DNA of 64,000 nucleotides, from contig CAVTKS010000006.1 in assembly GCA_963735375.1 (NCBI GenBank), positions 1,178,345 to 1,242,344 on the forward strand, in the 5' to 3' direction. How positions within the stretch are numbered: position 1 is the first letter of the stretch; each line of letters opens with the position of its first letter. This stretch comes from an uncultured Acidimicrobiales bacterium. GTDB taxonomy: Bacteria; Actinomycetota; Acidimicrobiia; Acidimicrobiales; VFJN01. The translations under genes and the position numbers were made by a program. Below the pieces are notes generated by a model. The model made no database searches, was not told the DNA's origin, and worked only from the letters and a program-made list of their open reading frames with translations. Shown here piece by piece: positions 1,005-56,248 of the stretch.

Positions 1005-3860
1005 TCAGTCCGCGATGCGCAGCGCCGCCGCGGGGCGGATGCGGGCGGCCTGGGCGGCGGGGACCACCGCCGCGGCCATTGCGGCGACAGCCGGCACCAC
1101 GACCAGGGCGACCAGCTCGAGCCACGGGGCCCGGAACGGGATCGGGTCGTCGAAGGCGTCGCTGCTCATCATCTGCTGGGCCGTGACCAGTCCGAGAGCC
1201 AGGCCGATCACGATGCCCTGCACCGCCACGAACGCCGCTTCGAGGAGGAACGCCCGGCGCACCACACGGGAGGAGAACCCCATGGCGCGCAGCATGCCGA
1301 CCTGCCGGCGCCGCTCGCGCACCGCCCGCACCATCACGACGCCCAGGCCGGCGATGCCGATGACCAGGCCCAGGGCGAGGTAGCCCTGCATGAGCCGCAT
1401 GAACCCCTGGCCCTCGCGCATCTCGTCGTCGATCGCGCCGCGGAACGTCTGGGCGTCGGCCCCGTTCGCCACGTGGTCGGCGTTGATGCGGCCGGCGACC
1501 GCCTCGGCGTCGACGCCCCGGTCGACCGCTACGTAGTGGCGGCTCTCGGTGGCCCGAGCGCCGAGTACGCCGGCCACCGTGTCCCGGCTGGCGAGCACCC
1601 CGTTGCCCATCCAGTCCTGATTGGTGAGCCCGGCGATCACCAGCTCACGGTGCTCGCCGGTGGCGGGGTCGGTGACGGCGACGGTGTCGCCCACGTCGAC
1701 GGTGGCGTCGCCGGGCGGCCCGTCGCCCTGGAGCAGGTCCTCGGCGGCGATGGCCAGGTCGGCCTCTGTGCCGACCGCCTCGAACGCGGCGCGGTCGTCG
1801 GCGAACCTGTCGTCGCGCTCGATCAGGTCGGGCACGCCCCGGTCGAGCATCGACGGCTCGAACCCTGTCACCACCCAGGTCGTGCCCTCCGGCTTGTGGG
1901 GCAGCGAGACCTCGGCCAGGCCCGTGAGCAGCGGCGACACCTGGGTCACGCCGTCGGTGGCGGCGATGGCCTCGGCGCCGAGTGGGCCCGTGGACGACGA
2001 GTCGACCCACATGTCCCAGCCGCCGCTGGCATCGGCGGTGAGCTGCGGGGCGCGGGCCGAGTCCGACTCGTTGATCGCCGACATCAGCGTGAGGGTGAAG
2101 ACGACCAGCGAGAACATCGCGAGGAGGATGCCGGTACGGCCTCGGCGCGCCAGGGGGTACGCGAGCGCCAGGCGGGCCGACAGCCCGCCCCGCTCGGCCA
2201 GCTGGTCGGCGACCCAGGCCCACACCCTGTCGGCCTGCGAGGCGAGCGCCACACCGGCGGCCACGAGGACCAGGCCCTGGACGAGGAACATCTCGAAGCC
2301 GACGTCCTCGAACGCGGCGGGCGCGGCGGAGGTGGCCACCACGGCCCACACGCCGGACAGCACCGCGGCGACGCTCACGACCAACCGCCGCGGCAGCACC
2401 CGGGCGACGAGGGGCACGGCCGAGAACAGTGCGAGGGCGGGCCCGGCCAGCACCAGCGGCGCCTCGTCGCCGGCCAGCCCGGCCTGGAACATGACCGTCC
2501 CGGCGAGCACGCCGACCGACGCCGCGACGGCCTTGCGCACGGACAGCCGGCGCACGGCCGGCTCCGGCAGGTCGCGGATCGCCCGGATGACGTTGAGCCG
2601 GGCGATGCGGATGCTGGTGCCCCACACGGTGAGCAGCGAGATCGCCAGCCCGATCAGGCCACCGGTGAGCAGGCTGGCGGGCTCGGCGGCGAACACGAAG
2701 GTCATGCCGTCCTCGTCCGCGAGGATGCTGCGGGTCACGACCAGGATCGCCTGCCCGACCCCGATGCCGAGCACCGTGCCGAGCACGGCCGCCGCCAGCG
2801 AGTACAGGCCGCCCTCGAGCCCGAACAGGCGGATCAGGTGGCTGCGCTTCAGGCCCACGGCGCGGATCATGCCCAACTCCGACTTGCGCTCTTCGGCCAG
2901 CATCACGAACAGGTTGACCAGCAGCAGCACGCCCACCAGCGCGCTGAACGTGCCCAGGCTCGAGAACAGCGAGCGCAGCGACGTGCCGGCCTCCTCGGCG
3001 TCGTCGAGCAGGTCCTGCTTCACGGTCACGACCTCGACGCCGTCCAGTCCGGCCAGCCGCTCCTCGAGCGCGCCGGCCACGGTGTCGGTGCGGTCGGCTC
3101 CGTCGAACACGCCGCCGGTGTTCGACACGAGCACGGTTGCCAGCGGCGGTTCGCCGACGGTGGCGCCGATGGCGAGGCCCTGCAGCGTTCCGGGTGCCAC
3201 GTACACATCCGCCGCGCCGGCCAGGCCGACCCGTGGCGCGACCGTGCGCACCTCGAGGGTGAGCCGGCGCCCGTACGCGTGCACGTCGATGGCATCGCCC
3301 GCGGCCAGGCCGAGGTCGTCGGCGAACAGCTCGTTGATGACCGCCTCGCCCTCCGCCGGGGTGGCGCCGGCGTCGGCCAGGCCCGTGGCGGCCGGATCGT
3401 CGCCGAAGGCACGGGCGCGGTCGAAGTCGACCTCGGCGACCGTGGCGTCGGGCTCGGCCTGCGGCTCCGCCGTCGCGGAGTCGCCGGGGGCGACCACCGC
3501 GGCGGAGGCGCCGACCGAGGTGAGCACGCCGTCGCTGTCGGGCAGGCTGCCGGGGTCGACCGCCGCCACCACGCCGTCGAGGGCGGCGACGTCCTGCACG
3601 ACGACCTGCTCGTCCACGGGGCCCAGCTCGGTGCGGCCGAAGTCGCGGATGGTGGCGTCGAACGTGTCTCCCACCACGAACGCCGAGGTGATGATGGCCG
3701 TGCCGAGGGCGGCGCCGGCCACGACCAGGAGCGCCTCGGTGGGCCGACGGACGACGTTGCGCAGCGCCAACCGGCGGAACCCGCGCCCGCGCACCAGGTC
3801 CCAGGCCATGAGGCCGACGATCACCGCGAACAGGCCGAGCAGGGGGAGCAGCACGATCAT
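1005..3860 (-). CDS. ABC transporter permease, FtsX/MacB-like with two FtsX domains
   Basis: ORF 1005..4154 trimmed to ATG 3860 ([20 protein letters not shown]). Two FtsX signatures are present (LAEERKSELGMIRAVGLKRSHL and VRERRRQVGMLRAMGFSSRVV). The start overlaps the ATPase stop (ATGA). Confidence 0.85.
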   Translation of the reverse strand: MIVLLPLLGLFAVIVGLMAWDLVRGRGFRRLALRNVVRRPTEALLVVAGAALGTAIITSAFVVGDTFDATIRDFGRTELGPVDEQVVVQDVAALDGVVAAVDPGSLPDSDGVLTSVGASAAVVAPGDSATAEPQAEPDATVAEVDFDRARAFGDDPAATGLADAGATPAEGEAVINELFADDLGLAAGDAIDVHAYGRRLTLEVRTVAPRVGLAGAADVYVAPGTLQGLAIGATVGEPPLATVLVSNTGGVFDGADRTDTVAGALEERLAGLDGVEVVTVKQDLLDDAEEAGTSLRSLFSSLGTFSALVGVLLLVNLFVMLAEERKSELGMIRAVGLKRSHLIRLFGLEGGLYSLAAAVLGTVLGIGVGQAILVVTRSILADEDGMTFVFAAEPASLLTGGLIGLAISLLTVWGTSIRIARLNVIRAIRDLPEPAVRRLSVRKAVAASVGVLAGTVMFQAGLAGDEAPLVLAGPALALFSAVPLVARVLPRRLVVSVAAVLSGVWAVVATSAAPAAFEDVGFEMFLVQGLVLVAAGVALASQADRVWAWVADQLAERGGLSARLALAYPLARRGRTGILLAMFSLVVFTLTLMSAINESDSARAPQLTADASGGWDMWVDSSSTGPLGAEAIAATDGVTQVSPLLTGLAEVSLPHKPEGTTWVVTGFEPSMLDRGVPDLIERDDRFADDRAAFEAVGTEADLAIAAEDLLQGDGPPGDATVDVGDTVAVTDPATGEHRELVIAGLTNQDWMGNGVLASRDTVAGVLGARATESRHYVAVDRGVDAEAVAGRINADHVANGADAQTFRGAIDDEMREGQGFMRLMQGYLALGLVIGIAGLGVVMVRAVRERRRQVGMLRAMGFSSRVVRRAFLLEAAFVAVQGIVIGLALGLVTAQQMMSSDAFDDPIPFRAPWLELVALVVVPAVAAMAAAVVPAAQAARIRPAAALRIAD

Positions 3861-4651
3861 CGGTCGACCCCGGTGCCCGCAGCGGTGAGGGAGGGCGTGG
3901 CGGTGGCCGGGGACGTGGCCGCGGTGGTCCCGCCCGGCCCACCGGCGTCGCCCAGCCCCCCGGCGCCGCGCGGGTCGCCGTCGTAGACGACGCGGCCGTC
4001 GCGCACCTGCACCAGGCGGGTGCCTGCGGCGCCGATGCCGCGGTCGTGCGTCACGAGCACGAGCGTCTGGCCGGCGCGGTGAGCCTCGTGCAGCAGCTCG
4101 AGCACGGCCGCCGCGGTCTGGCTGTCGAGGTTGCCCGTCGGCTCGTCGGCCCACACGATCGCCGGCTCGCCGACGAGCGCCCGGGCGATCGCCACCCGCT
4201 GCTGCTCGCCGCCGGACAGCTCGGTGGGCCGGTGACGGCCGCGGTCGCCGAGCCCCACCCGGCCGAGCATGGCGTCGGCCCGGCGGCGGGCGTCGCGGGG
4301 TCGCACGCCGGTGACGAGCAGGGGTAGCTCGACGTTCTCGCGCGCCGACAGCACGGGCACGAGGTTGAACGCCTGGAACACGAAGCCCATCCGGGCCGCC
4401 CGGTGAGCGGTGCGCTCGCCGTCCCGCAGGCGGTGGATGTCGACGCCGTCGATCTGCACGGTGCCCGAGTCGATGTCGTCGAGCCCGGACAGGCAGTTGA
4501 GCGCGGTGGTCTTGCCGTTGCCCGACGGGCCCATGACCGTGACGAGCTCACCTCGGGCGATGTCGAGGTCGATGCCGCGGAGCGCGTGGACGTCCTGGGC
4601 GGCCGTCCGGTACGTCTTCGTGACGGCGCGCGCGGACAGGATCGTGGTCAT
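3857..4651 (-). CDS. ABC transporter ATP-binding protein (MacB/LolD class)
   Basis: Walker [10 protein letters not shown], signature [15 protein letters not shown], Walker [13 protein letters not shown]. Start set at ATG 4651 ([14 protein letters not shown]). Confidence 0.9.
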
Positions 4652-4800
4652 GTCGGATTCCGCCTCTCGGTGCGAGGGCAGGGGGAGTCCCTGCACGACG
4701 GACCGTACGGACGGGTCCCGTCCCGGCCTATCGGGGATGCCCCTGAGGCACCCTGAGAAACCCTGATCGGCGGCGAGGGCAACGCTCCTAGGGTGTCCCC

Positions 4801-5905
4801 GTGACGACGACGCCTGCCGATGCCCCGACCACCGAGCAGATCGGGCTGTTCGCCTACCAGGTGGCCAGCCAGATGTCGGGGGCGGTCACCGCCGCGATGA
4901 TCCACCTGGGCGACCGGCTGGGCCTGTACCGGGCGCTCGACACCGCCGGTCGGCCGCTGACGACGAGCGAGCTGGCGGACGCCTCGGGCCTGGTCGAGCG
5001 CTGGGTCCGCGAGTGGGCCTACAACCAGGCGGCCGCCGGCCTGCTGGTCAGCGACACCGCAGACCCTGGTGGGGGCGAGCGGTTCTCCCTGGCGCCCGAG
5101 GCCGTGCCGGTCCTGGTCGACGAGGGCCACGAGGCATGCCTGCTCGGCATGTTCCATCAGCTCCCGCAGGACATGGAGCAGCTGACCGTGCTGCCCGAGA
5201 GCTTCCGCACGGGCCTCGGCCACGACTACGACAGCCACGGACCGGAGGCGGCCGTCGGGGTCGAACGCGGCTTCGAGCCCTGGATGCGCAACCACCTGCT
5301 GGCCGACGTGATGCCCGCGCTGGACGGCGTGGTCGACCGGCTGCGGGCGGGCACCGCGGCGGCCGACGTCGGCTGTGGCACGGGCAGCGCGGTGCTGCGG
5401 TTGGCGCAGGCGTTCCCGGCCGGCCGTTTCGCGGGCTACGACATCTCCCGACACGCGCTCGACCGGGCCAGGGCGCGGCTGGCCGAGAGCGGGCTCGGCA
5501 ACGCCGAGTTCCACGACCCCCGCGACGAACCGCTTGCCGAGCGACGGCTCACTCGGTTTCGTCACCACGTTCGACTGCCTGCACGACATGACCGACCCGG
5601 ACGGCGCCGCGCGGGCGATCCGTGCCGCGCTGGGCGACGACGGCACCTGGCTCGTGGCCGACATCAGGGCGTACGACACCTTCGCGGAGAACGTCGAGCG
5701 CAACCCGTTGGCCGCGCTGATGTACGGCACGAGTGTGTTGTCGTGCATGGCCTCCGCGCTGTCCGAGCCGGGCGGCGCCGGCCTCGGCACGCTGGGCATG
5801 TCGGCCGAGCGGGCCGAGGCCATGGCCCGCGGCGCCGGGTTCACCCGCTTCCGCCTGCTCGACATCGACCATCCTGTCAACGCCTTCTACGAGATCCGCC
5901 CCTGA
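4801..5905 (+). pseudogene. Rv2258c-like class I SAM-dependent methyltransferase, split by an apparent +1 frameshift near 5536
   Basis: Frame 1 (4801) gives the wHTH N-domain and SAM motif (DVGCGTGSAVLRL) up to NAEFHDPRDEPL. The conserved C-terminus (PSDGSLGFVTTFDCLHDMTDP...SEPGGAGLGTLGM...VNAFYEIRP) continues in frame 2 (ORF 5375..5905). The frames join at gaa ccg ctt g ccg agc. Confidence 0.75.
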
Positions 5906-5910
5906 GCGGC

Positions 5911-5938
5911 GATAGGGGAACTCGGTTCCGGGCCTATC
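5911..5938. promoter_or_regulatory. Imperfect nested palindrome between the methyltransferase stop and vapB (possible operator or terminator stem)
   Basis: GATAGGGGAACtcgGTTCCgggCCTATC. The inner GGAAC/GTTCC pair and the outer GATAGG/CCTATC pair are inverted repeats with a 3-nt bulge. Confidence 0.3.
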
Positions 5939-5964
5939 TATGACCCGATCATGTCGCTATCCTG

Positions 5965-16768: not shown

Positions 16769-18091
16769 TCAGTTCCAGGTGAAGGTGTCGCTCGTCAGGC
16801 GCTCGGCCAGCGGTGGTCTGTACCGCGCGGGTGGGCTATCGCGGTCAGGTGACCCGCCGGGTGGATCGGGTGGCGGGTCGAGGCCCGGTGGGGCGATGGG
16901 TTGGCCCCACCGGTCGGTGAACCGGAGGGTGCCGGTTTCGGGGTTGCCGTCGATGCTGAACTCGTCGTGGTGGAGTGCCCGGTGGTGGAACGGGCACAAC
17001 AGCACGAGGTTGGCGGGGACGGTCAACCCGCCGTTCTCCCAGAAGACGAGGTGATGGGCGTGCAACCACAGACGTTGGGTGCAGAGGGGGTGGGTGCAGC
17101 CTTGGTCGCGGCGGGCGAGGTAGCGGCGCATGGCCCGGTTGGGGGTGCGTTGGGTGGGGTGGATGCCGATGAGTTGGCCGAGCCGGTAGGTCATGACCTG
17201 CACGGTGGCGTCGCAGGCGAGGTAGCGGGCGACGGGGTCGGGGACGACGGGGCCGTTTTCGAGTTGGGCGGGGCCGAGGGTGCCGTCGGGGTCGACGTCG
17301 TAGTGCAGCACCACGGTGTTGCGTTCCCCGCGCTGGCCGGTGCGGGCGAGGGTGGGGTCCAACGCGTCGGCCGCTTCGGAGGCCATGCGGACCAGCCCGT
17401 CGGCCCACGACACCGACCGGGCGCCCTCGTCGGTGGGGGTGTCGGGGTCGGTGTCGGTGTCGGCGGGGAGGTTGTTGCGGTCGCGGAACTCGGCGTCGCG
17501 GGCGGCGCCGAGGCCGAGGCGTATGAGGGCGCCTTCGTCGGCGGGGAGGCAGAACGTGCCGTGGAGCCAGCCGTCGCGGGCGTCGCGTAGGCGCAGCATG
17601 CGTTCGGGGTCGGGTCGCAGCTCGCCGCCGTCGGGTTGTTCGGGCAGCGAGCGTAGGAGCCGGTCGAGTTGGGCGATCAACAGGGACGGTGCCAGCGCCG
17701 CGATCTCGGTGTCGCGGGCGGCGGGGACACGGCGGGCGATGCGGACCATGGCGTCTTCGCCCAACCGACCGGCAGTGAACAGGGCCCAGCAGGCGGGCAG
17801 GTCGCCGGCGCGGCGGGCGATGCGGACCAGGCCCTCGGCCCGGGAGCGGGACACCCCGGCCTTCCAGGTGACCCAATGCTCGGGCGACTGGATGCCGGGG
17901 CCCATCCAGCCGTCGGTGCCCAGTAGGTCGACCAGCGCCGCCACCAGCCGGGCGATCGCCACGTTGACCGTGCCCATCACCGCCACGGCCTCGCCCTCCG
18001 CCGCCCGCCAGGCCGCCGCCTGCGGCGACAGGCCAGGCCCGGGCGCGCCGTCAACCGCTGGGGACGGGGCAGGCGGAGCGACCACGGACAT
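16769..18091 (-). CDS. DUF222 / HNH endonuclease (13E12-repeat type)
   Basis: 440 aa. The C-terminal HNH is [49 protein letters not shown]. The N-terminal DUF222-like helical region includes [26 protein letters not shown]. Confidence 0.85.
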
Positions 18092-18135
18092 GCCCGAACA
18101 GTAACGACGAGGTATGACACCTTACGGAGGTCGAC

Positions 18136-21554: not shown

Positions 21555-22517
21555 TCAATCGGGCTTGCGCGGCATCGGGATCGTCCGGTCCGTGCTCTCG
21601 GGCATCGTGGTGGTGGCGTCGGCCTCGGCGGCCTCGTCCTGCTGGGGCAGGCCGACAGCCTCGGTGCCGTCGGGATCGGATGGGTGCGGGTCGCCCGATG
21701 CGGTGGTCATCTCGTGGGTGGCACCGGGGCCGCTCGGCGCCGGCGGCTGGGACGAGGCCGAGGCCTCAGGCGCGGTCGATGCCGCAGGTGCGGGCGTCGG
21801 TGCTGCGGGCGATGGCGGTGCCCCGGGGGCGACCGGTGGCGTGGACGTGACCGGTGCGGGTGCGTGTGCCGGCGCCGGCGGGACGACACCGCCGGGCGGG
21901 AAGGCCGTCGGACCGGGGCGGACGGCGGCATCGGCGCTGCCGGCCTGGGTCGGTGCCCACCAGGGTGGCGGCGGCTCGGCGATGCGGTGTTGCGGCGGGG
22001 CCGTCGCCCACGGCGCTGCGCCGGCCGGCACCGGCCGGTCCGCCCGGTCTGGCTGCGTGAACAGTGCGACGGCGAGGCCGACCAACCACCCGGTCCACAG
22101 ACCGAACGCGGCGCCGGCGTTGACCGCCTGCACCAGACCGTCGACGTAGGTGTTGCCGAAGGTCTGGCCGTCGAACACGACGGCCACCAGGTAGACGTAC
22201 TCGATCGCGCCGGCCGCCCCGGCCGCCACGACCAGGGCTCCCCACCCGCCGAGGAACGCCGCGCCGCGCGCCCGTGCGGTGCCCGCCAGGGCACACAGGA
22301 GCGCCACCACCACGATGGCCACGCCGAGGCGCAGCACCACCCCGGCGACGACGTCGCCGGGTGCGTTCCCGACGTCCCAGTTGGCGAACCCGGTGACGGT
22401 GAGACCGAGCGCCTGGCTGTCGGCCTCGCGGGCCGCATCGACCACCCCCGAGTTTCCGAGTGCCGCGACCAGCAGCGTCGTGGTCGTTGCTCCGGCGAGG
22501 GCCGTACGCATGGTCAT
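21555..22517 (-). CDS. Hypothetical membrane protein with Pro/Ala-rich C-terminal tail
   Basis: About 4 predicted hydrophobic spans, then a long PAPxP-rich tail. Its stop abuts the MMPL stop (TGATCA, zero gap). No recognisable family. Confidence 0.5.
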   Translation of the reverse strand: MTMRTALAGATTTTLLVAALGNSGVVDAAREADSQALGLTVTGFANWDVGNAPGDVVAGVVLRLGVAIVVVALLCALAGTARARGAAFLGGWGALVVAAGAAGAIEYVYLVAVVFDGQTFGNTYVDGLVQAVNAGAAFGLWTGWLVGLAVALFTQPDRADRPVPAGAAPWATAPPQHRIAEPPPPWWAPTQAGSADAAVRPGPTAFPPGGVVPPAPAHAPAPVTSTPPVAPGAPPSPAAPTPAPAASTAPEASASSQPPAPSGPGATHEMTTASGDPHPSDPDGTEAVGLPQQDEAAEADATTTMPESTDRTIPMPRKPD

Positions 22518-22559: not shown

Positions 22560-23399
22560 TCACTCTGAGCGAACCACGGGCAGTGGTCGGATCGTCGTGT
22601 CGGGCGCCCCCGACTCCCGCGCCCAGCGGGCGAACAGCACGCCGATCACCGGCCAGATGAGCGGCACGCTGCCCAGCTTCATCAGCACGCCCGCGAGCTG
22701 CTGATCGGACGCAGCGTCGAACCCGCCGACCCGCGGTGCCAGCTCGTAGACGCCGTACAGCGGGTGGTCGGCGAACGTGAGGAACCCACCCGGGATCATC
22801 GGCACGACCCCCGCGCCGAGGAACAGGAGCAGTGCCCGCGCGGGATAGCTGGGCCGCATCTCGTCGAGTGCCCCACAGATGGGCAGCCACAGGATGACGC
22901 CGGACAGCAGCCACAGCCCGTCGAGCGCGAACGAGCCCGCCTGGCTCGCCCGTAGCGCGTCCACGGAGACCGGTGCGTGGGTGCCGATGAGGACCACGTT
23001 GAAGATCACCGCGGCGGCGACCGGGCGGCAGGCGGCCCGCATCAGCTCTGTGGTGTGGGTGCGGGCAAGGGCGCGGCGCAGCATCGGCTCGCTGAGGCCG
23101 ACGACCAGCAGGGGCGCGGCCACCTGGGTGTAGAGCAGGTACTGCACCATGTGGGCGCTCGCCAGGTAGCCCGAGCCCAGGGTGCCGAGCGGCCAGTCGC
23201 TGGCGATCCACAGCACCAGCCAGCCGGCGACGAAGGCCAGCGGACGGCGCGGGTCGTCGCCCGCCCGCTCATCGGGGGACAGGCGCCTGCGGGCGGCGAC
23301 GTACCAGCCGAGCAGCGCGGCCATGGCGAGCCAGACGCCCGGGTAGGCGCGGGGCGCCCAGTCCCACGGGAGCTTGGATGCCGAGCACCACCAGGTCAC
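22560..23399 (-). CDS. Cytochrome c oxidase assembly factor CtaG-like (caa3_CtaG family) membrane protein
   Basis: ORF 22560..24326 trimmed to GTG 23399, which overlaps the upstream stop (GTGA). Polytopic membrane protein (WLVLWIASDWPLGTLGSGYLASAHMVQYLLYTQVAAPLLVVG). Family call is moderate. Confidence 0.6.
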   Translation of the reverse strand: MTWWCSASKLPWDWAPRAYPGVWLAMAALLGWYVAARRRLSPDERAGDDPRRPLAFVAGWLVLWIASDWPLGTLGSGYLASAHMVQYLLYTQVAAPLLVVGLSEPMLRRALARTHTTELMRAACRPVAAAVIFNVVLIGTHAPVSVDALRASQAGSFALDGLWLLSGVILWLPICGALDEMRPSYPARALLLFLGAGVVPMIPGGFLTFADHPLYGVYELAPRVGGFDAASDQQLAGVLMKLGSVPLIWPVIGVLFARWARESGAPDTTIRPLPVVRSE

Positions 23400-25237
23400 C
23401 GCTCGCCCGCCCGCTCGGCGACCTGGTCCCAGTCGAGGATGTCGACCGGCACCTCGATCGTGCCCGCCTCGGCGAAGGTGAGGCGGAGCGTGATCTGCTC
23501 GCCGGGCGCCAGCGGCCGCGCGAGCTGCTCCAGCATCACGTGGGTGCCGCCCGGTGCCAGCTCCGTGGTGCCGAGAGGGATCTCGAGGTCGATCGCCGTG
23601 CCGGCCTCGGTCTCGCCGTCGCGGGGCATGGCGACGCCCGGCCCCATGAGGGACACGCGACCGGCGACGTCGCTCTCGGCGGCGACCAGGCGGTCGTCGC
23701 GTCCCGCGTTGTCGATCGACAGGTAGACGGCGCTGATCCGGTCGTCGGCCGCCGCCCAGCCGCCGTCGACGGTCACCGGCGCCGGGTCCTCGGCGCCGCG
23801 GTCCCACACGTCGAGCAGGCGCGGGAGGTCGGCCTCCCAGTCCTGCCGGCGCACGCCGAAGGGGTACTGGAGGTGGGACTGGTCGTCGGGTGTATAGGCG
23901 ATGATCTGGGCAGCGTGGCCCACCTCGTAATCGCCGTCGGGCGTGGCGGTCGCACCGGAAGCGGCGACGATCGACCGGGCGATGCCGGCAGCATCCTCGG
24001 CCGCGGCGATCTGCTCGGGCGTGCCGGTCAGGCCCACGAAGTCGGTGCCGAAGTTGTCGAGCCACGACCGGAGCTGCTGGGGCGTGTCGCGCACCGGGTC
24101 GGTGGTGACGAACACGACCACCGGCTCGGGCATGCCAGGCTGCTCCAGAGCGGCCGACAGGGTCGCCATGTGGATGGGGCACACGTCGGGGCACGACGTG
24201 TAGCCGAAGAACAGCAGCGTGAGCCGCCCCTCGGTCTCCGCCTGGAAGTCGTAGGGCCGCCCGGCGGTGTCGGTGAGGGTGAAGTCGGGGCGTTGCAGGG
24301 GCTGGGGCAGGTAGGCGCCGTGCCACCCCTCGTCGATCGCGGGCGTCACGGTGGCGCCGCCGCCACCCGAGTCACGCTGGCTCGCGACGACCGCGCCCGC
24401 CCCCAGGACGAGCGTGGTCGCCGCGATCAACGCCGCCACCCGACCGATGCGTGGACCGGCGGGCGCGGGCTGCCCGGCCGGCGGATCGTCGGCGGCCGAC
24501 GTCGTCTGGTCGGCGGGGTCGTGGTCGTCGGTCACGACGCTGCCTCCGCTGAGGTCGGTGGCGATCGCCGTCAGCTGATCCGGCGTCAGCTCCCCGGACG
24601 CACGGGTGACGACGTTGCCGTCGGCATCGACCGCGACGAAGAACGGGAACGCCGTCAGCCCGGCGGCGGCGGCCGCGGTGTTCTCGCCGTCCACCAGCAC
24701 CGGGGCCGTCCACCCCTCACCGGCGAGCCACTCGCCGGGCGGGTAGTTGGGACGACGGGGGTCAGCGGCGGTCGACACCGTGACGAGGTCGACACCGTCC
24801 GGCAGCCCGCCGCCGTCGACCCAGTCCTGCACGACCGGCACCTCGGCCTGGCAATGCGGGCACCAGTGGGCGACGAACATGATCATCGTCGGCCGGCCGG
24901 TGGCCGGGATGGTGACGGGCGAGCCGTCCAGGCCCGTGCCCGAGAGGGTGGGCATCGCGGTGCCGACGGCCGGGTCGTCCCCGCTGTCGGGCAGCGGTGT
25001 CAGCGGGTTGCCCTCGACCGTGGCGGGCGTGTCGCTGGGCACTTCGGCGCTCGCGGTCGAGCCGGCCGAGTCGGTCGTGCCGCCGTCGTCGCCCGAGCCG
25101 GCGACGAGGGCCACGCCGAACGCGAGGAGAACGACGGCGACCAACCCGGCGACGACGACGAGCGGGCGTCGCGAGGACGGAGGGGTGGACGGGGGACGGG
25201 GACGGGGACGGGGACGGATGGGGGTGTGTGAGCTCAC
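23396..25237 (-). CDS. Three-domain fusion: TlpA/ResA-like thioredoxin + SCO1/SenC + PCu(A)C copper chaperone
   Basis: The three domain motifs are MFVAHWCPHCQAEVP (TlpA), LLFFGYTSCPDVCPIHM (Sco CxxxC) and the C-terminal SAVYLSIDNAGRDDRL...GGTHVMLEQL...LRLTFAEAG (PCuAC). Start GTG 25237 overlaps the dsbB-like stop. Confidence 0.8.
   Translation of the reverse strand: MSSHTPIRPRPRPRPPSTPPSSRRPLVVVAGLVAVVLLAFGVALVAGSGDDGGTTDSAGSTASAEVPSDTPATVEGNPLTPLPDSGDDPAVGTAMPTLSGTGLDGSPVTIPATGRPTMIMFVAHWCPHCQAEVPVVQDWVDGGGLPDGVDLVTVSTAADPRRPNYPPGEWLAGEGWTAPVLVDGENTAAAAAGLTAFPFFVAVDADGNVVTRASGELTPDQLTAIATDLSGGSVVTDDHDPADQTTSAADDPPAGQPAPAGPRIGRVAALIAATTLVLGAGAVVASQRDSGGGGATVTPAIDEGWHGAYLPQPLQRPDFTLTDTAGRPYDFQAETEGRLTLLFFGYTSCPDVCPIHMATLSAALEQPGMPEPVVVFVTTDPVRDTPQQLRSWLDNFGTDFVGLTGTPEQIAAAEDAAGIARSIVAASGATATPDGDYEVGHAAQIIAYTPDDQSHLQYPFGVRRQDWEADLPRLLDVWDRGAEDPAPVTVDGGWAAADDRISAVYLSIDNAGRDDRLVAAESDVAGRVSLMGPGVAMPRDGETEAGTAIDLEIPLGTTELAPGGTHVMLEQLARPLAPGEQITLRLTFAEAGTIEVPVDILDWDQVAERAGER
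25191..25213 (+). other. Perfect G-quadruplex-type motif (G4-5 AC)x4 on the template strand of the fusion gene 5' end
   Basis: GGGGGACGGGGACGGGGACGGGG. Its complement encodes the RPRPRPRP stretch at codons 8-16 of the TlpA-Sco-PCuAC gene. Confidence 0.5.
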
Positions 25238-25776
25238 GATGAGGACTCCTGGGGAAGGACGAGCAGCAGCGCGATCAGGGCGAAGCCCGACAGCGCCATC
25301 GCGGGGATGGTGAGGTAGCCGAACCGCTCGACCCAGATGGTCGAGCAGGGGTTGGTGACGTCGCACGAGCCGGACTCGAGCGAGGGGAAGCGCTCGAGCA
25401 CGACGTGATAGATCGACACAGCGCCGCCGACGAGAGCCAGGGGCAGCGCGTACCAGCGCACGTGTCGATCACGGCGCCAGGCGGCGATCGGCAGGATCAG
25501 GGCCAGCGGGTACATGCCGATGCGCTGGAACCAGCACAGGCGGCAGGGCGGGAAGTCGGCGACCTCGGAGAAGTAGAGGCTGCCGAGGGTGGCGACGACC
25601 GCCACCGCGGCCGCGACGGCGAGCGCGGCGGGACCGACCGCGGCGATCACGGCGCGGGGCCAGCGCGCCGCGGGTGCTAGGGCGCGGGTCGTCAGGGTGA
25701 CGACGAGGCCCACCGCTCCCAACTGCGCCGCGAGTGCGAGCAGCGCGAGGAAGAGGCTCACTTGGTCTGTGGACAC
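25234..25776 (-). CDS. DsbB/BdbC-family disulfide bond formation protein
   Basis: 180 aa with 4 TM segments. First-loop CxxC with a QR motif (PPCRLCWFQRIGMYP) and a second cysteine pair (SGSCDVTNPC). Confidence 0.8.
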   Translation of the reverse strand: MSTDQVSLFLALLALAAQLGAVGLVVTLTTRALAPAARWPRAVIAAVGPAALAVAAAVAVVATLGSLYFSEVADFPPCRLCWFQRIGMYPLALILPIAAWRRDRHVRWYALPLALVGGAVSIYHVVLERFPSLESGSCDVTNPCSTIWVERFGYLTIPAMALSGFALIALLLVLPQESSS

Positions 25777-25869: not shown

Positions 25870-26427
25870 TCAGATGACCGGGGAGAGCGGGGGGCCCCGT
25901 CGCGACAGCGACGAGACCGGTACGACCGCCGGCACGGCGGCCGGCGAGAGGTGGCGCCACCGTGGTGCGACGGGCCGACGCAGGACCGTCCGTCGCCGAC
26001 GTCGGACCGCAGCGACCGCCGCGCCGGCCTCGTGCGAGGACCGCAGGATCAGCGCCAGCACCCCCGCCACCGCGAGCTGGGCGAGCAGGCCCAGTACGAC
26101 AGCCGGCTGGGCGAGGGTCTGCGCCGGAGAGAGGCCGGCGGCCATGTGCTCAGCGAGCTCGACGGCGAGGAACAGCGAGACCTGCGCACCGGCCAGCGTC
26201 GACCACCGCACCGGCGGCAGCTCGTCGCGGAAGCCGGCGAGCAGGCTGCGGGCGAGGGCCGCGAACGCGAACGGCGCGCCGATGAGCAGGAGGGCGCTCA
26301 GGTAGCCGTGTCCCCCCACGGCGACAGGCGTGGAGCCCAGCGCCGAGGCGCCCTGGTACCCCAGCTCGTGGCCGGCGACGAAACCACCGGGGACGAGGAG
26401 CAGGGACCACCAGCGCAGGGCGCGCAT
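25870..26427 (-). CDS. Hypothetical membrane protein
   Basis: ORF 25870..26565 trimmed to ATG 26427 (MRALRWWSLLLVPGGFVAGHELGY). Has 4 hydrophobic segments and an Arg-rich tail. No family recognised. Confidence 0.4.
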   Translation of the reverse strand: MRALRWWSLLLVPGGFVAGHELGYQGASALGSTPVAVGGHGYLSALLLIGAPFAFAALARSLLAGFRDELPPVRWSTLAGAQVSLFLAVELAEHMAAGLSPAQTLAQPAVVLGLLAQLAVAGVLALILRSSHEAGAAVAAVRRRRRTVLRRPVAPRWRHLSPAAVPAVVPVSSLSRRGPPLSPVI

Positions 26428-26682
26428 CACGTCATCCAGGTTAGGGGAGCGCCCCGACAACGCCCCAGTCACGCCGCGGTCACGTAGGCGACGACCATCG
26501 CCGTCAGCCGACAGACGGCGATCTGGGGGCCCTCGCGGCGAGCAGAACATGCGCCGAGCGGGCAATCGGTCGCGCTTGCGAAAGTCAGCATGGACAGCAT
26601 CGCCGCTCCGAGGCGTGCGACATCAAGCCGGCGATCTGGGATACGACCGCGGGGCGAAACGGTTGGCGACCGGATGGGCGGC

Positions 26683-26702
26683 TCATATGTACGTATGTAT
26701 GA
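26683..26702. promoter_or_regulatory. AT-rich imperfect palindrome 10 nt upstream of a TetR start (putative operator / -10 region)
   Basis: TCATATGTACGTATGTATGA matches its reverse complement at 16 of 20 positions. It is strikingly AT-rich for this genome. Confidence 0.35.
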
Positions 26703-26712
26703 TCCCCCTTCC

Positions 26713-27375
26713 ATGACTGACACACCAGGCACCCGGGACAAATTGATACGAGCGACACGGGAGGCCATCCGGGACGTCGGCATGCCAGCGACCACGGCCC
26801 GCGAGATCGTCGGGCGGGCATCGGCCAACCTGGCATCGATCCCGTACCACTTCGGCACGAAGGACGCTTTAGTGGCCGAGGCCCTGGTCGCCGAGGCCCA
26901 CGAGCTGGTCGCTCCGGTGCTGACACTGCTGGCCAGCGACAGGCCGGCGGCCGAGCGAGCGACCGAGGCGGTGGCCATGCTCAACGACCTGTTCGAGGCC
27001 AGCCGGCCCCAGGTCCCCGTCTACCTCGCGGCCCTGGCGGCCGCGCCGCACACGCCCGGCGTGCGCAGCGGGCTCGGCACGCTATGGGCCGAGCTCCGCG
27101 CCCGCCTGGCCGACGACATCGCACGCCAGGTCGACGAGGGCCGGCTCCCGCAGTGGGTGTCGCCGTCCGCCATGGCTGCGGCCATCCTCAGCCTGGTGAA
27201 CGGGGTCATCGTCGCCTCGGCGATCGACCCCGACGGCCCCGACCACCGTGAGGTGGCTGCCCAGTTCCTCGCCCTGCTCCTGGCCGCCGGAGTGCCCGGA
27301 CCGGGCGGCGGCTCGGGGGCCGGGACCGTGCGGGTCGCAGGCCCCAGCTCCCCCGACGGGAGCGCGGAGCGATGA
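26713..27375 (+). CDS. TetR-family transcriptional regulator
   Basis: MTDTPGTRDKLIRATREAIRDVGMPATTAREIVGRASANLASIPYHFGTKDALV. ORF 26590 trimmed to ATG 26713. Confidence 0.85.
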   Translation: MTDTPGTRDKLIRATREAIRDVGMPATTAREIVGRASANLASIPYHFGTKDALVAEALVAEAHELVAPVLTLLASDRPAAERATEAVAMLNDLFEASRPQVPVYLAALAAAPHTPGVRSGLGTLWAELRARLADDIARQVDEGRLPQWVSPSAMAAAILSLVNGVIVASAIDPDGPDHREVAAQFLALLLAAGVPGPGGGSGAGTVRVAGPSSPDGSAER

Positions 27376-27926
27376 TTATCATGATCCTCATGCTGCTGGG
27401 CGTCGCCGCGATGACCGGCGGCGCGGCGCAGATGATCCGGACCACCGCCAACCGGCGGCGCCCGTGGTCCGATCGAACGACCAGGCATCTGGCCTGGGCG
27501 GCCTTCGCGTGGACGGTCCTCGCCGGGGTCGTTCTGCTGTTCGCGCCCACCATGTCGTCCACCGTGTCGGTGTCCTCGGGCGACCAGATGTCGCCGGCCG
27601 GTTCGCCCCCCGAGGTCATGACCACCACGTCGACGGGGACGCTGCTCGAGCACGAGGGGGCCGGCGTCATCGCCGTGCTGCTCGTTCCCGTCGCCGTCGC
27701 CCTCGTCGGTGCACTCGGGAACGGCCCGGCCGCCCGGCGGCGACGCATCACCGCCGGGTGGGTGCTGGCGGGCTTCTGCGTGCTCGGCGCCGCGTCCCTG
27801 GGGATCTTCTTTCTGCCGGCCACGGTCGCCCTCCTCACCGCCGGGCTCAAGACTCGGCGCCGCACCGCCGGGCCAGGCCCGAGGAGAGGGGCCACGCGGT
27901 TCCGTCCCCTGAACCCGGAAAGCTGA
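27372..27926 (+). CDS. Hypothetical membrane protein co-transcribed with TetR
   Basis: ATG overlaps the TetR stop (ATGA). Has 4 hydrophobic spans (MIIMILMLLGVAAM..., LAWAAFAWTVLAGVVLLF..., VIAVLLVPVAVALVGAL, WVLAGFCVLGAASLGIFFL). Confidence 0.5.
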   Translation: MIIMILMLLGVAAMTGGAAQMIRTTANRRRPWSDRTTRHLAWAAFAWTVLAGVVLLFAPTMSSTVSVSSGDQMSPAGSPPEVMTTTSTGTLLEHEGAGVIAVLLVPVAVALVGALGNGPAARRRRITAGWVLAGFCVLGAASLGIFFLPATVALLTAGLKTRRRTAGPGPRRGATRFRPLNPES

Positions 27927-28464
27927 CCACCTCGCCCAGGCCATGTTGGGTTGCCGCTGGACCTGGGCGTCCTCAAAAATGCCGGTCCAGGGCGCTTGCG
28001 ATAGTGAGCAGCGCAACGGTGGAGCGCGACGCTTGACGCGCCAGATCTGCCGATCTCGCGCGCCCTAGTTCGGCGTCGGGGATCGGACGAGCAGCAGTAT
28101 CAACTGGCTAAGAATCATGTGCTCGGGGTTCCGGGCAATCGACGACGAGCAGATGGAGATCTGACCCGAGGGCATCGAGGGCCCCAACTTCACACGACAG
28201 GCGCAGTGCCGCGCCCATGTCTGCCGCTCGCGTTCGACGGCGTGCGCCGACCCGCGAGGCTCAGCGGTCACAACGCCGCGTCAGGGTTTGGTACCTGGGC
28301 CGATCTCATACACAGGGTATGAGGGACGCCCTCGACAACCGAAGTGCACCACGCAGATACAGCGGCAGCTGGCCCCTGAGTGACCTCGGGTATATGACGC
28401 AATGTTCGACATTCCCGGTGTTTTTCCTTGTAGGAGGGGGTGCCAGGGGCTAGTCTACGAACGC

Positions 28465-29742
28465 ATGTTCGTGGTGCTGGAGGCGGGGGTGGACGAGGCG
28501 TTGGGGCTTGATCCCGACACGCTCGGCGATGTCGAGCTCACCGCCGCGCTCGACGCCATCCGCCGGGCCGAGGCCCGTCTGGCCGCGGCCCGGGCCCGGC
28601 TGGTCGCCGCCGCGGATGCCCGCCGTACCTTTGCCGCCTCCGGGCACCTCAACGCGGCGTCGTGGCTGGCGGACCGCAACCACAGCCCGATGGGCGACGC
28701 GCACGCCGATGTCCGTCTGGCCCGCCGGCTGCCCGGCATGCCTGTCACCCGGGCCGCGTTCGAGGCGGGCGACATCACAGCCCGCCACGCCCATGTCCTG
28801 GCCGGTCTGGCCGCGCCGGCGACCGCGGGTGCGTTCGCGGAGGCGGAGGAATTCCTGGTGGGGCAGGCCCGCACCATGCGCTGGGCCGATTTCACCCGGG
28901 CCATGGCCTACTGGCGCCGCGAAGCTCGCCCTGACGAGCCCGACAAGAAAGCTCGCTCCGACTGGGAACATCGTGGGTTCGGGCTGCATGACGGCCTGCG
29001 CGGCACCGGCCTGGTCGAGGGCGAGCTGACCGCGGTGGCCAAGGCCACCCTTGCGGGCGCCCTCGGCCCCATCGAGGACGAAATGTTCGCCGCCGATTGG
29101 GCCGCCGCCAAGGCTGTCCACGGGGAGGCGACCACCACCGGGCATCTGGCCCGCACGCCGCGCCAGCGCCGCCACGACGCCCTCGTCGAGCTCGCCGTCC
29201 GCGGCGCCACCGCGCCCGCCGACGGCCGGCGCCCCGCCCCGATCGTCAGCGTGGTGTTGGGCTACGCGGCGTTCAAGGACATCTGCGAACTCGCCGACGG
29301 CACCCTGTTGGCCCCCGGCGAAGCCGCCGCCGTGCTGGCCGATGACGCCCTGCTCGAACGGATCATCTTCAACGGGCCCTCCCGGGTCATCGACGTCGGT
29401 GAAGCCCGATCGTTCCGGGGTGCGGTCCGCCGGGCCATCGAGATCCGCGACCGCCACTGCACCGGCGCCGGCTGCCATGTTCCCGGCCACCGCTGCCAAG
29501 GCGATCACCGCTGGCGACACAGCGACGGCGGCCCCACCATCCAAGCCAACGGTGAGCTGCGCTGCGGCCCCCACAACCGCCAACGCGAGAAACCCCTCCC
29601 CCAACCCATCCCGCCCAAACACCCGCCACTCGAGCTGACCTTCGAGGAACGCGCCGCCCACCTCGAAGCCCTCCGCGCCAAGACGAGCGACCACATCCGC
29701 CACAACCCCCGCTACGGCTACGTCCCCATCAACGACCCCTGA
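28465..29742 (+). CDS. DUF222 / HNH endonuclease (second, divergent copy)
   Basis: Contains DAIRRAEARLAAARARLVAAADAR...AASWLADR (DUF222) and the HNH region RDRHCTGAGCHVPGHRCQGDHRWRHSDGGPTIQANGELRCGPHNR. An alternative start is ATG 28402. Confidence 0.85.
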   Translation: MFVVLEAGVDEALGLDPDTLGDVELTAALDAIRRAEARLAAARARLVAAADARRTFAASGHLNAASWLADRNHSPMGDAHADVRLARRLPGMPVTRAAFEAGDITARHAHVLAGLAAPATAGAFAEAEEFLVGQARTMRWADFTRAMAYWRREARPDEPDKKARSDWEHRGFGLHDGLRGTGLVEGELTAVAKATLAGALGPIEDEMFAADWAAAKAVHGEATTTGHLARTPRQRRHDALVELAVRGATAPADGRRPAPIVSVVLGYAAFKDICELADGTLLAPGEAAAVLADDALLERIIFNGPSRVIDVGEARSFRGAVRRAIEIRDRHCTGAGCHVPGHRCQGDHRWRHSDGGPTIQANGELRCGPHNRQREKPLPQPIPPKHPPLELTFEERAAHLEALRAKTSDHIRHNPRYGYVPINDP

Positions 29743-30228: not shown

Positions 30229-31574
30229 TCAGGTCGCGAGATCGGCGGGCTGGCCGGACTCGGACCCCTGCGCCAGCCAGTCGAGGGCGACCGCGGCGGT
30301 CCACGACTGGGCGGACGAGCCGAGCGGCTCGCCGGTCAGCGGTTGCGCGTACTCGCTGCACCCGCTCTCCCGCAGTTGGGCGATGGCGGCTCGACGCAGC
30401 GCATCGGCCCGGTCGTGGCACCCGTCGCGGTCGAGCGCCCACCACAGCAGCCACGTGATCACCGGCCACGTCGGGCCGCGCCAGTACGAGCAGGGATCGA
30501 ACGCCGGGTCGTCCACGGCCGTCGTCGGTGGGACGGCCCAGCGCAGGCCGTCGGCACCGGCGTATGAGGGCCCGGCGAGGCGGGTGGCCAGTGCGGCGCG
30601 GCGGTCGGCGTCGCAGCCGGCCACCAGCGGGGCGAACCCGGCGATGGTGTCGGCGGTGACCCACTGGTCGGCCACCAGGTCGCGGTCGAGACAGGCGCAG
30701 CGGGCAGGGTCCCAGCAGGCGTCGAGGCCGCGGCGACTCAGCTCGGCGTCGGCGCGGTGCCCGTCTGCCGCCCCGGCGTGCCCGGCGATGGTCGCCAGGT
30801 CGGCGAGCGTGTCGTCGGCCGCGGCGAGGATGGCGGTGAACAACACGTCCGCCATGCGGAACGGGTGACGTCGATGCGACGCGACGGGTCGTAACCCACG
30901 TCGACGAGCTCACGGACCAGCGTGTGGTAGCGGCGGTACTCGTCGTCGGACGGGCGCTCGGACGCGTCGCCGACGTGCACGAGGTCGGGGCGGACGCCGG
31001 CCGTCTGCTCATTGATGGCGACGGCGGCCAGGGCGTCGTCCCACCGTGGCGAGTTGTCGAGCCCGCTCTCCCACGGGTGGAACACCGTGACGAGCCCTGT
31101 GCCCTCGGGGTCGCGGGCGGTGTGGAGCCACCGGTGCCAGGCCGCCAGCCGGGGGTACAGGTCGACGATCGCCCGGTCGACGGTCGCCACCGTGTCGTCG
31201 TGGCGGCGGGCTGCGATCGAGCGGATGCGCGCCAAGGCGATGGCGTGCACCGGTGGCTGGCAGATGCCGCTCGTGGCCACCCGGGGTGGGCACAGACCCG
31301 CTGTCCCCCAGGTGGTGTGGCGGGGCTCGTAGGCGCCCAGCGCCACCGAGCTGTCGAACACGATCTGGGGGACCATGCCGGTGGACCACTGTCCGCGGAA
31401 CAGCGAGCGCAGCTCGGTCACGGCCCGGTCGGGTGCGAAGTGGGCCCACCCGATGGCGACAAAGGCGGCGTCCCAGCTCCACTGGTGCGGGTACAGCCGG
31501 GGAGACGGGCGGGTCCAGGTGCCCCGGTCGTTGGTCCGCAGGACGCCGATCGCCTCGGCCGCCAGCTCGTCCAC
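30229..31574 (-). pseudogene. GH63-type (MGH1-like glucosyl/mannosylglycerate hydrolase) glycoside hydrolase, split by an apparent -1 frameshift near 30863-30868
   Basis: The N-part (ORF 30738..31574) contains YPHQWSWDAAFVAIGW...VFHPWESGLDNSPRWD. The C-part (ORF 30229..30855) contains HPFRMADVLFTAIL...YWRGPTWPVITWLLWWAL...EYAQPLTGEPLGSSAQSWTAAV. One extra G in the GGG run at 30863-30865 would restore ...IDVTPFRMADV. Confidence 0.75.
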
Positions 31575-31708
31575 CGCCGAATCGTACAGTCGTCAGGCCA
31601 CGCGGTCGGTCCGGCGCTGGCCGTCCCACCAGCGCAAGCGGCCGGCGGCGTGCGGGTCCTTGTACGCCTCCACCGGCGCAGGTTACGGCACGACCGCGTG
31701 GTGCACGG

Positions 31709-56244: not shown

Positions 56245-56248
56245 GGAG

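Follow-up and report, generated by a model that had tools for sequence, protein, structure and literature searches.

A 613-codon thioredoxin-like/Sco-PCuAC reading frame in an Acidimicrobiales genome is probably two neighboring genes joined by one extra base

The established model of CuA assembly is built on Sco, PCuAC (PcuC), and TlpA of Bradyrhizobium diazoefficiens, and on Sco1 and PCuAC of Thermus thermophilus (PMC6669012, PMC9145763). The copper ligands of SCO1/SenC proteins are arranged as CXXXCXnH, and those of canonical PCuAC proteins as H(M)X10MX21HXM (PMC9145763). Our literature search found no description of a TlpA-Sco fusion in the CuA-assembly reviews consulted, and no open-access statement on Sco-PCuAC fusions. 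In Streptomyces, Sco is reportedly a separate protein, whose PCuAC-like partner ECuC is encoded apart. Here, we analyzed a 64-kb stretch of DNA (the window) from an uncultured Acidimicrobiales bacterium, in which a preliminary description had proposed a single native protein uniting three CuA-maturation activities, i.e. those of a TlpA-like disulfide reductase, Sco, and PCuAC.

Features of the 613-codon open reading frame

As deposited, the 613-codon ORF runs on the minus strand (as do all features of the gene cluster described below) from 25237 to 23396, within a frame that is open from 25366 to 23396. GTG 25237 is the biological start. It overlaps, as GTGA, the TGA of a DsbB/BdbC-like membrane disulfide oxidoreductase gene (25234..25776, 180 aa, Pfam DsbB 56.2 bits), and AGGAG is found 8 nt upstream. 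At the other end, the TGA of the ORF (23398-23396) overlaps, again as GTGA, GTG 23399 of a Caa3-type CtaG gene (22560..23399, 279 aa), whose product matches Caa3_CtaG (PF09678) with 132.2 bits against a cut-off of 27.7. A hidden Markov segmentation based on third-position GC identifies a single uninterrupted coding frame at 23401-25166.

Three Pfam domains are encoded. Redoxin/AhpC-TSA (PF08534, thioredoxin-like superfamily) spans aa 91-218 with 55.8 bits (cut-off 26.6) and contains the motif HWCPHC (Cys126 and Cys129; CPHC at 24851..24862), in which CPHC is kept in the proteins of relatives. SCO1/SenC (PF02630) spans aa 317-453 (23879..24289) with 104.1 bits (cut-off 22.8), covers profile positions 2-133 of 134, and contains SCPDVCP (Cys349 and Cys353; CPDVC at 24179-24193). 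PCuAC (PF04314) spans aa 491-596 (23450..23767) with 69.8 bits (cut-off 29.4), covers profile positions 2-109 of 109, contains GGTHVM, and matches PDB entries 9rf0, 2k6w, and 1x9l. There are two hydrophobic segments. The first (TM1, aa 25-47, 25097..25165, Kyte-Doolittle 3.05) is preceded by six Arg and followed by acidic residues, and is predicted to be a signal anchor oriented N-in/C-out. The second (TM2, aa 267-285, VAALIAATTLVLGAGAVVA, 24383..24439) has a Kyte-Doolittle value of 2.27 and a borderline sum of about -0.2 kcal/mol on the Hessa scale. An in-frame GTG, 24439, is codon 267. The single ORF, its three domains and motifs, its two hydrophobic segments, and this GTG had all been reported correctly in the preliminary description. 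It had also pointed to a topology paradox, in which two spans would leave the Sco-PCuAC half in the cytoplasm, and had offered as explanations an anchor that is cleaved or not inserted, internal initiation, or a lost stop codon between two genes.

Separate genes in relatives and a surplus base at the junction

Protein searches, which covered 5.8 billion clustered proteins and 1.84 billion representatives, found no second protein spanning both halves of the ORF. Among 72 homologues, JGI-sourced proteins included, the three domains occur together in the window's own protein only, the rest being Sco-PCuAC proteins of 340-463 aa with up to 76% identity. In the best 150 matches of a HMMER scan of the 1.84 billion representatives, TlpA-like proteins cover residues ~3-234, and Sco-PCuAC proteins begin at residues ~240-310. 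Stand-alone TlpA-like relatives are ~200–290 aa long and match query residues 3-234 only, and Sco-PCuAC relatives, of ~330–460 aa, begin just past residue ~234. The few long proteins that match in two stretches are Redoxin-Redoxin proteins with rhodanese or PPIase domains, with no Sco fusion. In a genome-contig scan by Sco-PCuAC alignment, a TlpA-like ORF is neither fused nor adjacent at 80 more distant loci among the matches listed, which are mostly Gemmatimonadota and were used solely as a negative control for fusions. Recurrence of a hypothetical family of TlpA-Sco-PCuAC three-domain proteins in independent genomes was found neither in the two protein databases nor among the genome-contig loci listed.

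Alignment with relatives, which had been proposed as a check for separate genes, revealed separate dsbB, tlpA-like, and sco/pcuAC genes, in that order, in all five syntenic relatives. In four of them, a Caa3_CtaG gene is called downstream of sco/pcuAC, the exception being L084. The DsbB-like protein shares 85-91% identity with the syntenic genes of L001, L002, and L083, the Sco-PCuAC cistron 72-77% with its relatives (tblastn), and the Caa3_CtaG gene 80-84% with L002 and L083. In each relative (L001, L002, L083, L084, and L085), the tlpA-like TGA and the sco/pcuAC GTG overlap as GTGA, and the same tetranucleotide is present in the window (24532..24535). Tblastn alignments of the relatives' TlpA-like proteins end at 24539-24545. 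A DNA alignment (A1) shows one surplus base in the window between conserved Gly-Gly codons and GTGA; the junction reads GGC A GCG TCG TGA, compared with GGT GCG TCG TGA in relatives. This extra A (24541), three codons upstream of GTGA 24535–24532, leads from the tlpA-like frame into the sco-pcuAC frame. In the window, GTG 24535 is the in-frame codon 235, and TGA 24534-24532 is intact but out of frame, so that the ORF reads ...DLSGGSVVTDDHD... across the junction. When A 24541 is deleted in silico, the first protein ends with DLSGGAS before the stop, compared with QLSGGAS in L002. The lost stop codon of the preliminary description was thus essentially right, except that the codon itself is unmutated and has been moved out of frame by a 1-nt insertion. 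As now read, codons 1-234 (24536..25237) form the TlpA-like cistron, and the native Sco-PCuAC cistron (23396..24535) comprises 379 aa and a stop.

Only two of the 33 in-frame start-type codons have a strong Shine-Dalgarno site, namely GTG 25237 and GTG 24535, the latter with GGAGG (24543..24547) 7 nt upstream. GTG 24439 lacks a site of the GGAGG kind, and we rejected it as an internal start because GTG 24535 is favored by the conserved GTGA, by its Shine-Dalgarno site, and by how the N termini align. One gene caller picked the equivalent of GTG 24439 as start codon in L085. Read from GTG 24535, the second half starts with (M)TDDHDPADQ and aligns full-length with relatives, including the N terminus, a variable tail, and the anchor (alignment A2, 21 sequences). 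The alignment with the 20 Sco-PCuAC relatives includes the Met-Thr/Ser N terminus. Judging from the tails of these relatives, which differ widely in length (the longest, in P0016, has about 90 residues) and share the same composition, the acidic/Pro-rich stretch previously read as a linker (ORF aa 235-266, 24440..24535) is part of Sco-PCuAC as its variable, presumably cytoplasmic N-tail. G or C occupies the third position in 28 of its 32 codons (hand count). Aligned relatives whose called start includes the anchor have it at the same position as aa 267-285, and two Arg precede it (PRIGR), consistent with an N-in/C-out orientation in stand-alone Sco-PCuAC. If there are two separate proteins, TM2 is the normal N-terminal signal anchor of the second, and therefore the topology paradox dissolves, making it unnecessary to invoke an anchor that is cleaved or not inserted.

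The junction is free of RNA elements and internal terminators: a search of the whole window against Rfam had no match, and a promoter/terminator scan of 21-27 kb gave no site. Programmed frameshifting or read-through was rejected, as the relatives just terminate at the tlpA/sco junction. A genuine three-domain protein selected for CuA assembly, with TM2 cleaved, re-entrant, or uninserted and all domains outside, would fit the unbroken ORF and its continuous coding signal, and direct inspection of the sequence reveals a possible signal-peptidase-like V-V-A/S site past TM2. Such a protein is nevertheless highly improbable and appears largely refuted by the comparison with relatives. Neither protein database holds a further example, the distant loci listed show no fused or adjacent TlpA-like ORF, and in all five syntenic relatives, the genes are separate and overlap in GTGA. 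Moreover, the junction in the window is one base off that of the relatives, with the ancestral stop/start tetranucleotide intact, which is the signature of an accident rather than of an evolved linker.

Origin of the extra base

These findings suggest that the ORF consists of two ordinary neighboring genes, thioredoxin-like and Sco-PCuAC, joined by an extra base that is probably an assembly error (a probability of roughly 0.65). An indel in the assembly consensus is the likeliest origin, given the single-base frameshifts in two further conserved genes of the 64-kb stretch. In one of them, which encodes an MGH1-like glycoside hydrolase, a 1-nt deletion at 30879-30897 separates two halves that share 87-96% identity with intact orthologues of 446-448 aa; the other, an Rv2258c-like methyltransferase gene, is split near 5528. 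The ABC/FtsX genes at 1005-4885, which were considered as a further frameshift, are a normal adjacent gene pair. For a stretch of about 55 genes, three frameshifts are many, yet real pseudogenes could account for such a number. Homopolymers are the commonest context of long-read indels, and the extra A lies outside any homopolymer, which speaks against an assembly error. The nearest database relative shares 76-79% identity, the databases searched containing no same-species sequence for comparison.

Alternatively, A 24541 might be a real recent mutation in the lineage, which is possible but rather unlikely. A 613 aa TlpA-Sco-PCuAC protein would then be read through from GTG 25237. Its Sco-PCuAC half may end up in the cytoplasm when TM2 integrates, or be exported when this borderline segment is not retained, and functional Sco-PCuAC would still be made from GTG 24535 via GGAGG. 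Internal initiation, as had been proposed, is thus plausible if the insertion is real, with GTG 24535 rather than GTG 24439 as the start. That the insertion is present in the deposited sequence, its position outside a homopolymer, and the marginal hydrophobicity of TM2 are in line with a real mutation. GGAGG might be added to these, as the five relatives have no comparable Shine-Dalgarno site at this junction, but it is also found in the corrected sequence and is hence neutral between the two origins. On the other hand, the fusion is a singleton without a conserved counterpart, and the two nearby conserved genes are also frameshifted with halves that are otherwise undegraded, which argues for assembly error over three independent pseudogenizations. 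Sequence comparison alone does not separate an error from a genuine recent mutation, of which the error appears to be the likelier. It is improbable that the extra A is real and that the cell makes both a recent read-through fusion, with a mixed or dual topology, and normal Sco-PCuAC from GTG 24535. If the A were real, the locus would offer a natural snapshot of how a multi-domain metallochaperone originates from translationally coupled neighbors, and would show how the translocon deals with a signal anchor located behind an exported domain.

The public protein of this locus, P0001 (613 aa), is a chimeric gene call. It is therefore unfit to serve as a natural three-domain CuA-assembly protein, and unsuited for inferences on domain co-evolution or topology. 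Three single-base indels in 64 kb also call for caution with other frame-dependent observations from the window.

The two proteins and their counterparts in described systems

The comparison with relatives indicates an ancestral state in which a gene for a thioredoxin-fold protein (TlpA/ResA-like, CPHC) is translationally coupled to a Sco-PCuAC gene, each product being membrane-anchored. A 24541 shifts the first frame into the second, so that TGA is skipped and GTG 24535 becomes an internal codon. If the extra base is an assembly error, the first product would be a TlpA-like protein of ~234 aa, N-in with its catalytic domain outside. The second would be a Sco-PCuAC of 379 aa, whose acidic/Pro-rich tail would be cytoplasmic and followed by one signal anchor. 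Both of its copper domains would be outside, where they could work on subunit II of cytochrome oxidase in the way described by the Sco/PCuAC model.

The name TlpA-like disulfide reductase proved over-specific for the first protein. It scores 19.2 bits with the NCBIfam TlpA model (NF047696, equivalog cut-off 230), and is also below cut-off with the models for StoA (43.7 versus 210), ResA (29.4 versus 170), and DsbE (21.5 versus 123). Its motif is CPHC, as in E. coli DsbA, and its gene is directly preceded by the DsbB-like gene, whose product scores 120.5 bits with NCBIfam PRK03113, slightly below the cut-off of 124. A Sco reductase of the TlpA type would reduce the cysteines of Sco and CoxB with electrons from a CcdA/DsbD-type protein. 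The gene cluster, examined over about 19-27 kb, contains no CcdA/DsbD gene, the adjoining gene being DsbB-like, i.e. of the oxidizing pathway. Given the CPHC motif and the DsbB neighbor, the protein may be either an oxidase or a reductase. The nearest solved structures for residues ~60-234 are the N-terminal domain of Neisseria PilB (2jzr), Bacillus subtilis StoA (3erw), ResA (4nmu), and Mycobacterium tuberculosis DsbF (3ios) and DsbE/MPT53 (1lu4), with E values from 5.5e-10 to 6e-4. The window protein shares with these extracytoplasmic thioredoxin-fold oxidoreductases the architecture of a membrane-anchored CxxC redoxin, although all NCBIfam models for these proteins remain far below their curated cut-offs.

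In the Sco domain, the ligand pattern is C349-PDV-C353 followed by His441, and neither the two Cys nor the His vary in the 21 sequences aligned. SCO1/SenC proteins have a single N-terminal membrane or lipid anchor with the domain outside, an arrangement predicted here only for a start at GTG 24535. In the PCuAC domain, a regular-expression search for the canonical H(M)X10MX21HXM spacing gave no match, and M-x5-M-x28-H-V-M is found instead (hand count). The PCuAC ligand loop is variable, with insertions in close relatives, and the distant P0062 and P0068 retain H-x10-M.

The closest counterparts of the second protein are Sco-PCuAC proteins of Acidimicrobiia (for example P0002, P0003, P0008, and P0014, annotated as SCO family protein of an Acidimicrobiales bacterium), and some Gemmatimonadota proteins are of the same two-domain type. 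Residues 235-613 align end-to-end with the closer Acidimicrobiia relatives with 58-79% identity (A2). They share an N-terminal acidic tail, a single anchor, the CxxxC...H of Sco, and the HxM of PCuAC, and the operon is likewise shared, whereas in the window, one extra base makes the cistron a continuation of the upstream gene. What emerges is ordinary but useful: in an Acidimicrobiia clade, the genes for dsbB, CPHC-redoxin, sco/pcuAC, and ctaG form, in this order, a conserved operon with translational coupling, and its Sco and PCuAC domains are a native fusion with a single anchor in front of them. The Sco domain matches B. diazoefficiens ScoI (Blr1131, 4wbj) with an E value of 2.4e-21, and the PCuAC domain matches T. 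thermophilus PCuAC (TTHA1943, 2k6w) with 8.5e-09. Among solved structures, the Sco domain is best matched by the Sco of Streptomyces lividans, itself actinobacterial (E value of 1.4e-30; PDB 4bpy; PMC3603459). In B. diazoefficiens and T. thermophilus, Sco and PCuAC are separate proteins, whereas in the window they are natively fused. Unlike TlpA of B. diazoefficiens, the thioredoxin-like partner in the window is no TlpA orthologue and is paired with a DsbB-like gene. By analogy with these systems, Sco and PCuAC of the window presumably have the same extracytoplasmic role, i.e. metallating subunit II.

The open reading frame as deposited

The open frame on the minus strand runs from 25366 to 23396. 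Its start, GTG 25237, is preceded by AGGAG 8 nt upstream and shares GTGA with the TGA of the upstream DsbB/BdbC-like gene (25234-25776, minus strand), while its stop (TGA 23398-23396) overlaps GTG 23399, the start of a Caa3-type CtaG gene identified by Pfam. The 613-residue product matches three Pfam profiles, i.e. Redoxin/AhpC-TSA (aa 91-218; 55.8 bits, cut-off 26.6), SCO1-SenC (aa 317-453; 104.1 bits, cut-off 22.8) and PCuAC (aa 491-596; 69.8 bits, cut-off 29.4), and contains the motifs HWCPHC, SCPDVCP and THVM. There is a strong hydrophobic segment at aa 25-47 and a moderate one at aa 267-285 (Kyte-Doolittle 2.27, summed Hessa scale about -0.2 kcal/mol), codon 267 being an in-frame GTG at 24439. 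Third-position-GC hidden Markov segmentation gives a single coding frame across 23401-25166. The preliminary description, made by reading the sequence, had listed one ORF, three domains, two hydrophobic segments and GTG 24439, and the Pfam, motif and hydropathy results agree with it.

Its headline, a native single protein with three activities, has no second instance in the protein databases searched. Of 72 homologues found among about 5.8 billion protein clusters, the window's own protein (P0001), the sole member of its cluster, is the only one with all three domains. The other homologues (≤76% identity) are Sco-PCuAC proteins of 340-463 aa, covering approximately the C-terminal 50-60% of the query. 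When 1.84 billion representatives were scanned exhaustively with HMMER, the best 150 matches fell into two classes, TlpA-like proteins of 200-290 aa matching query residues ~3-234, and Sco-PCuAC (~330-430 aa) or shorter Sco-only proteins starting at ~240-310; none of these 150 spans the TlpA/Sco boundary. The few longer proteins matching in two stretches carry Redoxin domains in tandem, together with rhodanese or cyclophilin domains, and were rejected as Sco fusions. Among the matches listed, a TlpA-like ORF was fused or adjacent in none of 80 more distant loci, mostly from Gemmatimonadota. The two-domain Sco-PCuAC is a common architecture, already annotated as "SCO family protein" or "protein SCO1/2". 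The three-domain fusion is no native feature and is best regarded as an artefact or accident that merged two genes, rather than as a real feature; that TlpA-Sco-PCuAC is a selected fusion is highly improbable.

The junction in relatives and the Sco-PCuAC start

The preliminary description had proposed alignment with relatives as a check for separate genes. In all five syntenic loci tlpA-like and sco-pcuAC are separate, which also counts against a native three-activity protein. Sco-PCuAC in L001, L002 and L083 is 72-77% identical to that of the window by tblastn, and the proteins encoded by L084 (P0017) and L085 (P0014) are within 67-73% in an alignment of Sco-PCuAC proteins (A2). The order dsbB, tlpA-like (185-247 aa as called), sco/pcuAC is found in 5/5 loci, followed by a Caa3_CtaG gene in four, with no call in L084. 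In each, a GTGA is common to the tlpA-like stop and the sco-pcuAC start, and the window keeps this GTGA at 24535-24532. In the DNA alignment, L002 reads AGC GGC GGT GCG TCG TGA (S G G A S stop), whereas the window has AGC GGA GGC AGC GTC GTG ACC, with an extra A after GGC, and reads through. This window-specific base, A at 24541, brings the upstream frame into that of the downstream gene, so that reading passes over the TGA and takes the former start GTG as codon 235; removal of the A gives back "...DLSGGAS" and the stop. The earlier suggestion that a stop between two genes was lost was therefore right in substance, the cause being a +1 insertion.

The 379 aa product from GTG 24535 aligns full length with 20 relatives, including the Met-Thr/Ser N terminus set by GTGA(C/G)C. 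The "linker" at aa 235-266 (TDDHDPADQTTSAADDPPAGQPAPAGPRIGR) is the counterpart of the N-terminal tail of stand-alone Sco-PCuAC, which is acidic and Pro/Gly/Thr-rich throughout the relatives and very variable in length, reaching about 90 residues in the longest (P0016). In aligned relatives whose called start includes it, aa 267-285 is the conserved single hydrophobic segment after this tail, with two Arg upstream and a short Gly/Asp-rich spacer downstream, before the Sco domain. We infer that in the stand-alone protein it would be a normal N-in/C-out signal anchor, with Sco and PCuAC outside, in keeping with PMC9145763, where Sco proteins are described as tethered by one transmembrane segment or by a lipid. 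The topology paradox raised earlier, in which a second anchor would misplace the Sco-PCuAC half, applies to the read-through polypeptide only, this segment being by alignment the N-terminal anchor of Sco-PCuAC.

When the 33 in-frame ATG, GTG and TTG codons were scored for a Shine-Dalgarno sequence at proper spacing, only two had a strong one, GTG 25237 (AGGAG) and GTG 24535 (GGAGG at 24547-24543, 7 nt upstream). None was found for GTG 24439 in this survey; the internal Sco-PCuAC start suggested earlier would instead lie at GTG 24535. Were the insertion genuine, the GGAGG should still let ribosomes start separately at 24535 and make normal Sco-PCuAC. Removal of the extra A would leave GGAGG intact, so this site favours neither error nor mutation. 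It is improbable that a true read-through fusion arose very recently and is accompanied by internal re-initiation.

Frame disruptions and surroundings

A frame survey of the 64 kb revealed two further clear frame problems. An MGH1-like glycoside hydrolase gene (minus strand) is split into an N part (30738-31592; Pfam profile positions 1-163 of 356) and, in another frame, a C part (30229-30909; positions 165-356), which are 94-96% and 87-89% identical to intact orthologues of 446-448 aa. By tblastn with these, the frame switches between 30897 and 30879, through a 1-nt deletion (CG, vs CGG in L001 and L002) that is likely an assembly indel. In a Rv2258c-like methyltransferase gene (plus strand), frame 4792-5943 carries the HTH and the N-terminal half and frame 5312-5905 the C-terminal half, with a switch near 5528 that inspection of both frames by eye suggests is at CTT-G-CCG. 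Three single-base disruptions in about 55 genes, with otherwise undegraded flanks in the two comparable with relatives, form a pattern of consensus indel errors; genuine pseudogenes would not usually look like this in a free-living bacterium of high GC. We therefore put the probability that the extra A 24541 is an assembly error at roughly 0.65. That it is instead a real recent mutation is kept alive by the finding that none of the three indel sites has a long homopolymer, but is rather unlikely given that the two other conserved-gene frameshifts nearby look like consensus indel errors.

Damaged genes were also seen in relatives. In L001 (6103-6570), CtaG is called at 155 aa only, which align with the C-terminal half of CtaG in the window. 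In L084 (598-1038, 4736-5191, 5298-7128), the MGH1-like gene is truncated to 146 aa, an MMPL gene is split (542 + 235 aa) and CtaG is not called. Indel or assembly problems thus seem to affect those contig_NNNN-style assemblies as well.

Two conserved proteins, neither with a Pfam match, flank the operon here and in the relatives (both minus strand in the window): one of ~185 aa upstream of dsbB (25870-26430; 69-86% identity in relatives) and one of ~320 aa downstream of ctaG (21555-22517; 56-60%), which has, by eye, the look of a membrane protein and a tail rich in Pro and Ala. Between the MGH1-like and 185 aa genes (26590-29742) are genes that L001 and L002 lack there, possibly mobile-element insertions. 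They include a TetR regulator identified by Pfam (26590-27375) and an ORF of 446 aa (28402-29742) that by eye is similar to the DUF222/HNH-endonuclease family; another ORF, at 16769-18121, is a confirmed DUF222 member. Across ~55000-64000 third-position GC gives a weak or patchy coding signal, long stretches (57449-58833, 59342-60272) are classed as non-coding by segmentation, and an Rfam scan found no RNA family; the region may differ from the rest in composition or origin.

The operon and known copper and thiol systems

The operon dsbB-like, CPHC redoxin, sco/pcuAC, caa3-type ctaG (22560-25776, minus strand) is kept in L001, L002, L083 and L085, and its three gene junctions in the window are all GTGA stop/start overlaps. 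From family knowledge, it would encode a DsbB-like quinone-linked oxidoreductase, an anchored extracytoplasmic CPHC thioredoxin-fold protein, an anchored Sco-PCuAC and a Caa3-type CtaG. CPHC is the active-site motif of E. coli DsbA. One shared anchor, native to the clade's Sco-PCuAC, would hold both chaperones together at the membrane. As PMC6669012 is summarised in PMC9145763, apo-subunit II receives its Cu(II) and Cu(I) from Sco and PCuAC acting together. The thioredoxin-fold protein probably sets the redox state of Sco and/or CoxB cysteines. Because of its CPHC motif and its DsbB-like neighbour, rather than CcdA/DsbD, it may act as an oxidant and not, as the label of TlpA-like reductase implies, as a reductant; the thioredoxin fold itself stands (Redoxin Pfam), but this half misses all specific NCBIfam models tested.

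The PCuAC profile match is full-length despite non-canonical ligand spacing: H(M)X10MX21HXM has no match in the window's protein sequence, where a hand count gives M-x5-M-x28-HVM. The closest solved structures are 9rf0, 2k6w and 1x9l for PCuAC, and Streptomyces lividans Sco (4bpy, E 1.4e-30) and Bradyrhizobium ScoI for Sco. For the thioredoxin-fold half they are the PilB N-terminal domain, StoA and M. tuberculosis DsbF. TlpA itself is a reductant. The window's thioredoxin-fold protein is below the TlpA model cut-off (19.2 bits vs 230) and adjoins a DsbB-like gene.
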